DNA of 2,144 bases from Escherichia coli (GTDB taxonomy: Bacteria; Pseudomonadota; Gammaproteobacteria; Enterobacterales; Enterobacteriaceae). Location: NCBI RefSeq assembly GCF_003334385.1, contig NZ_QOWN01000102.1; one strand, given 5' to 3'. The position numbers and the translations under genes are program-made. Below the pieces are notes generated by a model. The model saw only the letters and a program-made list of their open reading frames with translations, was not told the origin of the DNA and did no database searches. The stretch's first letter is position 1, and every line of letters starts with the position of its first letter. Below are positions 416 through 1,530 of the stretch, piece by piece.

Positions 416-1153
416 TCTGGTGAGACACTGGTTCTTGGTTCTGCCACAACAGTAACAGGAACAAAATTTGGGGGGGCGTTACTTTCGGGTGGGGCGGCGA
501 CTTTTGATGCAGTCACGACGGCTATGGCGTCTGCTGCCCCTGCTCTTGGAGCAATGGCTGTGGTCGCTGGGCCAATGGGATATGACCTTCTCGCTAATGA
601 TGGGCGTGCCGGGAAGGCTCTGAGCGATGGGCAGTTAATAAATTCTCAGGCTGAAATGTGTTACTGGACCAGTAGTTGTCCTTTAGATAGCCCACATGAG
701 AATGATAATTCGTCAGGGAGTCAGCCGAATGTTGGGAAGGATTTGACGGATGAAGAGAAGAACTGCCTGGCCGGCGGCAGTACGGGAAGCCCGGGAGGAT
801 GGGGACCAGAAGATGAGAATAGCGCAAGGGATCGTATGCAGCATGAACGGTATAAAGATGAATTGCGACAGAAAATGGGAAAACCCGACGTTACAGATTC
901 AAATTTGAAAAATATTATAGACGATCTTTATCGGCCAAATGCAAAAGTAGGAAGTGGAAGCACAGCAGATGCTGTTCGTTATGAATTGGCCACAGGTGAA
1001 AAAGTTGGTGGTAGAGGACATGTATTGAAAGCACAGGATTATACAAGGGCTTTACAGGATTGGTTGGATAAGAATCCAACAGCATCTCCAGGGGATCGAG
1101 CAGCAGCAGAAAACGTTCTTCAGGATTTACAGAATGCTTTGGGAGGCAAGTAA
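2..1153 (+). CDS. rhs: Rhs family polymorphic toxin, C-terminal portion (5'-truncated by window edge): end of conserved core plus variable CT toxin region
   Basis: Open frame from the window edge to TAA at 1151-1153, with no in-frame stop upstream, so the GTG at 5 is not the real start. The translation carries the conserved Rhs core C-terminus (..[54 protein letters not shown]), which I recognise from E. coli-type Rhs proteins. Hand-counted GC on the first 60 nt is about 65%, dropping to the low 40s after about nt 660. Confidence 0.92.
416..1150 (+). other. Rhs variable C-terminal (CT) toxin region, family unassigned; N-terminal Gly/Ala-rich hydrophobic part and polar, charged C-terminal part
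   Basis: It lies immediately after DPLGL, where Rhs proteins carry their polymorphic toxin domains. Composition changes within it: codons 142-197 are Gly/Ala/Thr/Val-rich, while codons ~275-382 are rich in D/E/K/R. An immunity-like small ORF follows directly. Confidence 0.75.
1141..1146 (+). promoter_or_regulatory. Shine-Dalgarno (GGGAGG) for the immunity ORF, embedded in the 3' end of rhs
   Basis: GGGAGG at 1141-1146 with 6-nt spacing to ATG 1153. Confidence 0.55.
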
Positions 1154-1530
1154 TGAACCAATATATTGCTAGTTATATAGAAAAAATGGCATCATTTTCC
1201 ACTGTTTTGTCTGAGACAGTCTCATTAGCTAATGAATACTGGCATCCAGAAACGCCACCGGTGGTTATGTTGTTCTCTCAGGTTGGAAAAACGATTGTAA
1301 AAAATTTTTATGAAATGGGGGATATTGAAAGAGAAAAAATATTTAAACATGTCGAAGATGGTATGGTCTCGCTTGATGATGAATTGGCCACAGTTGTAGC
1401 TACAGGGCTTATAGAGGCAATAGTCACTGCGACCGATAGCAATTCTTTACTTTGGCAAGATGTAAGTAAATTTCTGGGTGACAAATCAAAGTCTCATGCA
1501 TTAGTGTGGAAAAATTTTGGTCAGGAGTGA
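1153..1530 (+). CDS. Putative cognate immunity protein for the Rhs CT toxin (125 aa, acidic, family unassigned)
   Basis: ATG at 1153-1155 overlaps the rhs TAA (1151-1153) by one base. A GGGAGG Shine-Dalgarno at 1141-1146 sits 6 nt upstream of the ATG. Hand-counted GC on sample lines is about 33-45%, matching the AT-rich distal CT. Size and position fit the usual Rhs-CT/immunity gene arrangement. Stop is TGA at 1528-1530. Confidence 0.72.
   Translation: MNQYIASYIEKMASFSTVLSETVSLANEYWHPETPPVVMLFSQVGKTIVKNFYEMGDIEREKIFKHVEDGMVSLDDELATVVATGLIEAIVTATDSNSLLWQDVSKFLGDKSKSHALVWKNFGQE

Follow-up and report, generated by a model that had tools for sequence, protein, structure and literature searches.

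At the end of a type VI secretion system 1 (T6SS-1) hcp-vgrG-rhs operon on the Escherichia coli chromosome, we analyzed a stretch of 2,144 nucleotides (contig NZ_QOWN01000102.1; hereafter the window) that is 100% identical to many complete genomes and carries the 3′ end of rhs together with a small downstream open reading frame (ORF), whose 125-residue product bears the RefSeq label "hypothetical protein." The rhs reading frame enters at the 5′ edge of the window, and its first part encodes the end of the Rhs core: residues 2 to 137 align with profile positions 1126 to 1261 of 1261 in NCBIfam NF041261 (RHS_core; E = 2.2e-79), with further matches to TIGR03696 (E = 5e-24) and Pfam RHS (PF03527). 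Beyond the core lies a C-terminal tip of 245 residues, reaching from the DPLGL motif to the rhs stop codon and ending in a toxin domain that belongs to no classified family. GC content falls stepwise from the core (0.61) through the N-terminal part of the tip (0.54), the toxin domain (0.42), and the ORF (0.37) to the spacer behind it (0.30), a pattern usual for imported tip/immunity cassettes. Judging from comparative sequence analysis, the ORF is very probably the cognate immunity gene of the Rhs-tip toxin domain, a reading strongly supported by conserved pairing with the toxin, independence of the carrier scaffold, the form of the gene junction, co-divergence of the two proteins, orphan copies of the immunity gene, and position in the T6SS locus.

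Table 1. Features of the window, with positions counted from its first nucleotide.
Feature	Positions	Strand	Remarks
3′ end of Rhs core (shell) coding region	2–415	+	DPLGL motif at 401–415 marks the core end
Variable N-terminal part of the Rhs tip, outside the shared cassette	416–712	+	Gly/Ala-rich, two Cys
Linker common to CdiA-CT proteins; 5′ boundary of the mobile toxin/immunity cassette	713–817	+	
C-terminal toxin domain, ~110 residues, unclassified family	818–1150	+	
Shine-Dalgarno-like GGGAGG in the last rhs codons (GGA GGC)	1141–1146	+	6 nt 5′ of the ATG
TAATG, rhs stop and ORF start sharing one base	1151–1155	+	Stop 1151–1153, ATG 1153–1155
Predicted cognate immunity gene, 125 residues, WP_001077738.1, divergent DUF7674 member	1153–1530	+	Stop TGA at 1528–1530
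Start of ISAs1-family (ISEc1, "H-repeat") transposase gene, context only	1999–2144	+	RefSeq annotation of identical loci

The ORF product has an isoelectric point (pI) of 4.77, with 18 Asp and Glu residues to 10 Lys and Arg, and its maximum Kyte-Doolittle 19-residue mean of 1.34 leaves it without a stretch of transmembrane strength; an earlier note on this DNA, made from the letters alone, had described an acidic 125-residue product with no transmembrane segment, and that description stands. Its sole Pfam match is DUF7674 (PF24722; i-E = 0.0011, 19.4 bits), with residues 25 to 119 aligned to model positions 17 to 104 of 111 (88/111 covered). Most of its relatives match the model: 80 of 100 aligned sequences do so at E ≤ 0.001 (best, 3.9e-13) and 94 at E ≤ 0.1. 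These profile matches place the ORF, as a divergent member, in an uncharacterized family, so that the "unknown family" of the earlier note holds for the function and has been superseded as to the name. The family was reached by an exhaustive HMMER (phmmer) search, which returned 327 representative relatives at E ≤ 0.001 (118 at E ≤ 1e-10), an earlier word-indexed search having given almost only E. coli copies. Among 145 listed relatives examined, 129 are 110 to 135 residues long (median, 123), and the 100-sequence alignment has W30, G85, and E88 as invariant positions, with P32, P36, G45, E68, T84, and W119 almost invariant. A few members are fusions: P0132 joins DUF4926 to DUF7674 (both by Pfam), P0128 carries the domain twice in tandem, and others (among P0123, P0094, and P0151) bear additional unassigned domains.

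An AlphaFold model of the ORF product is a seven-helix bundle with a predicted local distance difference test score (pLDDT) of 97.3. The predicted fold has no close solved relative, and its matches are HEAT-like helical bundles with low and generic scores. None of the known Pfam immunity families (SUKH, Imm1 to Imm74, and CdiI families) matches the ORF or any of its 100 relatives, and the SUKH and Imm folds proposed in the earlier note were thus not found by the Pfam scan; as for the NTF2-like fold, which is alpha+beta, the predicted all-helical bundle is unlike it, although no search was aimed at NTF2-like folds. Searches of NCBIfam, PADLOC, PHROGs, and PDB sequences, with the single sequence and with a profile, gave no match. 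Our literature search for DUF7674, WP_001077738, and DUF4926 yielded nothing useful, and DUF7674 is not mentioned in the literature searched. Given the AT-rich surroundings (GC, 0.37) and the empty NCBIfam, PADLOC, and PHROG searches, the ORF might be supposed to be a chance reading frame in the DNA behind rhs and no gene at all. The homology and structure results refute this reading, to which we give practically no credence: the ORF has 327 representative homologues, similar to it in length, three residues are invariant, the predicted structure reaches a pLDDT of 97.3, and both the pairing with the toxin and the junction are conserved across phyla. We regard the ORF as a real protein because of its relatives, its confidently predicted structure, and its intact state in an allele whose rhs is frameshifted.

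The immunity reading rests first on what accompanies the homologues elsewhere. Hidden Markov models (HMMs) of the toxin domain and of the immunity family were scanned against six-frame translations of 22 other loci (L numbers below) from plasmids, metagenomes, and species-representative genomes. Fourteen of them have the toxin domain or a remnant of it directly upstream of the immunity homologue on the same strand: full length in eight (L002, L004, L008, L010, L016, L017, L018, and L023), frameshifted in one (L022), and reduced to a truncated remnant in five (L003, L006, L009, L015, and L021). This pairing reaches from Enterobacterales to alpha- and betaproteobacteria and to a metagenome-assembled genome (MAG) labeled as Clostridia, and it also occurs on two short metagenome contigs. 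The carriers differ from locus to locus. The toxin domain sits on Rhs cores in E. coli and Bradyrhizobium; on CdiA, with VENN or AVKNN junctions, in Serratia, Erwinia, and the Clostridia-labeled MAG; on an FhaB/CdiA-like filament without VENN in a betaproteobacterial MAG; and on unrelated N termini in L010 and L022. On a Serratia myotis plasmid, a 44%-identical immunity homologue directly follows a VENN-bearing CdiA C-terminal fragment whose last 155 residues are 69% identical to the Rhs tip of the window. In the Clostridia-labeled MAG, a contig of 1,457 bp (L023) holds a CdiA-like C terminus, an AVKNN junction, the toxin domain, and a 27%-identical immunity homologue; the contig could be mis-binned, could come from a diderm Firmicute, or could reflect real spread beyond Proteobacteria. 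In a Rhodospirillales MAG (L022, positions 2955 to 3300), the toxin appears frameshifted near its 3′ end, with the conserved AAENIVKDMK in another frame, and is either a pseudogene or the product of an assembly error.

Small genes beside T6SS effectors are sometimes adaptors, and a helical, HEAT-like bundle is a fold common in binding proteins; on those grounds the ORF could be an accessory for delivery or activation of the Rhs effector, such as an adaptor, chaperone, or cofactor. We consider this very improbable. The genes of known Rhs chaperones and adaptors (EagR/DUF1795 and similar) precede rhs (PMC6730261), whereas the ORF lies downstream, and neither Pfam nor NCBIfam places the ORF in a T6SS chaperone or adaptor family (DUF1795/EagR, DUF4123, and DUF2169). 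Moreover, the same gene follows the same toxin on CdiA, which is exported by a different route, and its homologues persist as orphans without any effector.

These features fit an immunity gene, as does the junction between the two genes. The earlier note had pointed to an rhs stop codon and an ORF start codon sharing one base and to a GGGAGG within the last rhs codons; both are present as described (Table 1), and the tight coupling read from them is borne out by comparison. Of 13 homologous loci whose toxin 3′ end is intact, 12 have a toxin stop codon that overlaps or adjoins the immunity start codon (−4 to +2 nt), as TAATG (four loci), TGATG (four loci), TAGTG, TAAATG, TAAATATG, or TGACGATG, and this arrangement is kept although the proteins of those loci share just 27 to 57% identity. 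A single TAATG would mean little, and the overlap in the window is meaningful because it is conserved across loci. Most junctions also contain a purine-rich, Shine-Dalgarno-like stretch arising from the conserved C-terminal toxin codons for ...NALxG[KRQ] (Gly/Lys/Arg).

Within nine full pairs, pairwise identities of the toxin and immunity proteins are correlated (Spearman 0.76; Mantel p = 0.0008), and the toxin is the more conserved of the two in all 36 comparisons (mean identity, 62% versus 37%). Such co-divergence fits inheritance as one unit with a faster-evolving immunity protein. The toxin domain is mildly basic (pI 8.2, versus 4.8 for the ORF product), and we count this opposition of charge, along with the lack of a membrane segment in the ORF product, for the immunity reading. 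The immunity-gene interpretation put forward in the earlier note thus gains support from the tracking of one toxin domain across scaffolds, from orphan copies, and from co-divergence.

We next consider the extent of the mobile unit. A phmmer search with the Rhs tip matches UPEC536-type CdiA-CT chains (5j5v_B, 5j43_F, and 8zyc_B; E = 1.5e-7 to 7e-7), with identities concentrated in the linker, and the BLASTP alignment to the Serratia CdiA-CT (69% identity over 155 residues) starts at the linker. A motif of the form PN[IV]GKDLTDxEK...GSG.PGG.GPEDE is common to the Rhs tip and to CdiA-CT proteins that include the UPEC536 tRNase (L004, 5500 to 5668; L024). One junction module thus joins different toxin domains to carriers of both the type V (T5SS) and type VI secretion systems. 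A second E. coli allele, from strain 222 (L025), encodes a protein identical to that of the window from "PNVGKDLT" onward through the toxin, with only three nucleotide differences in the toxin domain, all synonymous, whereas between DPLGL and "PNVGKDLT" the two alleles are completely different (window, 416 to 712; L025, 476 to 800). Both versions of that stretch are Gly/Ala-rich. In strain 222, rhs is frameshifted and the immunity gene is intact. The switch between alleles at the linker, together with the presence of the linker in Serratia and UPEC536-type CdiA-CTs, indicates that the mobile unit consists of the linker, the toxin domain, and the immunity gene.

Several results weigh against the immunity reading. 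The ORF resembles no characterized immunity protein in sequence, profile, or fold searches, and by itself it reaches DUF7674 with a borderline score (i-E = 0.0011, 19.4 bits). Five synonymous and five nonsynonymous codon changes separate the ORF copies of the two E. coli alleles and indicate mild constraint only, and shared ancestry of the loci partly accounts for the correlation between toxin and immunity identities. The sample of loci, drawn from a scan with a nine-sequence alignment, leans toward closer relatives and covers part of DUF7674. Finally, 8 of the 22 loci have no trace of the toxin beside the homologue. Most of these are explained as orphans: the Ewingella homologue stands at the end of a cdiA-CT/cdiI orphan array, that of Lelliottia lies in an array of small ORFs with genes common to the Ewingella array, that of Polaromonas adjoins an Rhs-like fragment, and that of Klebsiella is cut by an insertion sequence (IS) and is the same allele as the Serratia copy. 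The Pseudocitrobacter homologue is at or near a contig edge, among small secreted-looking ORFs, and a 1.4-kb Logan contig (L011), which shows no toxin trace upstream, is too short to interpret. The Rhizobium homologue, which is degenerate and follows a helix-turn-helix gene, and the Marinobacter homologue, at or near a contig edge, may or may not be orphans.

Orphan copies and arrays, with or without toxin remnants, were found in the Salmonella, Ewingella, Lelliottia, Pectobacterium, Methylosinus, and Achromobacter loci; in Salmonella, a toxin remnant of 24 residues precedes the homologue, and both lie within an array of Rhs remnants. In these respects the ORF resembles the RhsI and CdiI immunity genes: it directly follows the 3′ end that encodes the toxin, shares its strand, and is translationally coupled to it; its family accompanies the toxin domain as the latter passes between Rhs and CdiA scaffolds; and that family includes orphans located in immunity arrays and evolves faster than the toxin. 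To characterized RhsI and CdiI proteins, the ORF product shows no sequence or fold relationship that we could find. HEAT/ARM-like repeat proteins, including the "Imm-HEAT" class (Zhang et al. 2012; PMC3482391), differ from the ORF product, which has just seven helices and only low, generic scores.

Within the species, the ORF is present in 402 of 5,426 complete E. coli genomes (~7%), as a single chromosomal copy every time, and its bearers include enterotoxigenic E. coli from pigs and human isolates. The locus of strain JP538 is intact, with a near-complete T6SS-1 cluster (frameshifted in tssG alone), hcp, vgrG, a gene for a 1,506-residue Rhs protein, and the ORF. In strain HKUOPY1, by comparison, tssM, vgrG, and rhs are annotated as truncated and the ORF is intact. 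Several E. coli genomes show this state, with T6SS genes or rhs truncated or frameshifted beside an intact immunity ORF (L001, 6093 to 13153; L025, 1 to 1213). In strain P276M (L026), the immunity ORF itself carries frameshifts and stop codons, and the whole cassette has decayed.

Retention of the ORF where the T6SS or rhs is degraded raises a further alternative, namely that it is a passenger of the cassette whose main role in E. coli is now a different one, for example regulatory or RNA binding like that of RhsFI, an E. coli Rhs immunity protein reported to bind small RNAs and to be expressed from a promoter internal to rhs (PMC7618764). RhsFI (ECs0604 of enterohemorrhagic E. coli) is encoded, like the ORF, directly after an rhs toxin tip; unlike the ORF, and as far as the published description allows comparison, it belongs to island S-loop 44, is paired with a BpuSI-like nuclease toxin, and has a basic surface (PMC7618764). 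The passenger alternative is improbable, in our view somewhat less so than the accessory role considered above. RhsFI belongs to another locus and another toxin and has a positively charged surface, whereas the ORF product is acidic; retention of immunity genes after loss of the toxin is itself typical of immunity genes; and the 7 promoter-like sites inside the rhs 3′ end do not exceed the number expected by chance (3.9 ± 2.0). We also rejected RhsFI as a prior description of the ORF, since by the account in PMC7618764 both the locus and the toxin are others. Internal promoters that express a toxin tip and its immunity gene have been reported at other E. coli rhs loci (PMC7618764). Weak sigma-70-like sites lie upstream of the ORF, in the rhs 3′ end, at 682 to 709 and 890 to 918, and the surroundings of the ORF, when scanned for promoters, terminators, repeats, and Rfam families, gave nothing above chance, with no terminator-like site 3′ of the ORF.

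If the ORF is the cognate immunity gene, the locus would work much as other Rhs and CdiA systems do. The linker, toxin domain, and immunity gene would travel as a single mobile cassette. Ribosomes would stop at the rhs TAA and restart at the overlapping ATG, or would bind the GGGAGG, and with translation coupled in this way every cell making the toxin tip would make the antidote too. The Rhs shell would release the tip, and the T6SS would deliver it, as described in reviews of Rhs and CdiA systems (PMC9086364, PMC3482391). In the cytoplasm, the acidic DUF7674 protein would pair one-to-one with the toxin domain and occlude either its active site or its substrate surface, and the producer and its kin would be protected from toxin made internally or delivered by neighbors. 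The toxin may be a cytoplasm-acting RNase distantly related to the Ntox28 domain of the UPEC536 CdiA-CT tRNase, a step suggested by weak similarity. We infer binding, neutralization, and toxin activity by analogy with such systems.

The toxin domain has 118 relatives, whose source names are Rhs or filamentous hemagglutinin. Precomputed Pfam annotations of these relatives contain no domain except DUF7674 on the chimeric protein P0274, and a Pfam scan of 59 aligned family members gave no match, Ntox28 (PF15605) included. The family has a motif that includes LYRPxAxVGSGSTAxAVRxExxTG, and among its conserved residues are Arg17, Tyr38, Arg39, the GSGSTA loop, Arg54, Glu56, Thr59-Gly60, His68, Lys71, Trp82, Asn86-Pro87, Asp93, and Glu98-Asn99. 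E. coli Rhs-CT1 to -CT10 classes are defined by recognized toxin domains, and the Rhs tip of the window, without such a domain, differs from them in this respect. No characterization of the toxin or of the ORF product was found in the literature searched.

The UPEC536 CdiA-CT/CdiI pair, a CysK-activated Ntox28 tRNase and its immunity protein (PDB 5J43, 5J5V), shares the linker with the Rhs tip of the window. The best PDB fold match of the toxin domain, by two programs, is this UPEC536 CdiA-CT (Ntox28), with a link that is weak and not significant, and an hhalign comparison of the toxin family with the Ntox28 alignment was likewise not significant (E = 0.17; probability, 0.35%). The GYGI tail at the C terminus of the UPEC536 sequence is absent from the toxin. 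We take this tail to be the CysK-binding motif of UPEC536 CdiA-CT. The two immunity proteins show no relationship, and we rejected the ORF as a relative of UPEC536 CdiI (hhalign probability, 0.2%). The active site of Ntox28 comprises Asp155, Trp176, His178, and Glu181 (PMC9086364). In the nonsignificant hhalign register, an invariant His of the toxin falls on the catalytic His178 and a family Gln falls on Gln180; in the same register, Lys takes the place of Glu181, Trp176 has no conserved counterpart, and the alignment does not extend to Asp155.

A divergent Ntox28-like RNase is our best guess for the activity of the toxin, and a tentative one. A bolder proposal, which we hold to be somewhat doubtful, is that the cassette represents an undescribed toxin/immunity family pair, in which a CysK-independent, divergent Ntox28-fold toxin with a remodeled active site would be neutralized by a DUF7674 protein with a compact, HEAT-like, seven-helix fold that is unrelated to UPEC536 CdiI, the pair being exchanged between T5SS (CdiA) and T6SS (Rhs) carriers across several proteobacterial classes, and possibly beyond. 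The remodeled active site would consist of the invariant Ser48, Ala50, and Glu56 and a near-invariant Arg, with H-x-Q-K in place of H-x-x-E.

In kind, the system is an ordinary Rhs/CdiA toxin-immunity pair, and the understanding of such systems is unchanged by it. An immunity role, if true, would be the first functional label for DUF7674 (about 330 representative clusters), as far as we have found. The analysis further draws attention to a toxin domain, as yet unclassified, that Rhs and CdiA weapons both employ. The toxin and its predicted antidote are small, with confidently predicted folds, and the weak structural resemblance to the UPEC536 tRNase provides a concrete hypothesis for the target of the toxin.

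Downstream of the ORF, the part of the window from 1531 to 2144 contains an AT-rich spacer (GC, 0.30) with a 39-residue ORF (1638 to 1757) that matches no family. The 48 residues of the transposase encoded inside the window give a weak match to NCBIfam transpos_ISAs1. In strain JP538, where more of the region can be followed, the ORF is succeeded by ISEc1, then by another rhs that has a small ORF of its own behind it, and finally by yafV. In detail (L027, 23206 to 28331), the ISEc1 copy is followed by an "RHS element protein dsORF-h1," then by the second rhs, at full length, and an overlapping hypothetical ORF of 130 residues, the last two of which are probably a different, second toxin/immunity pair.

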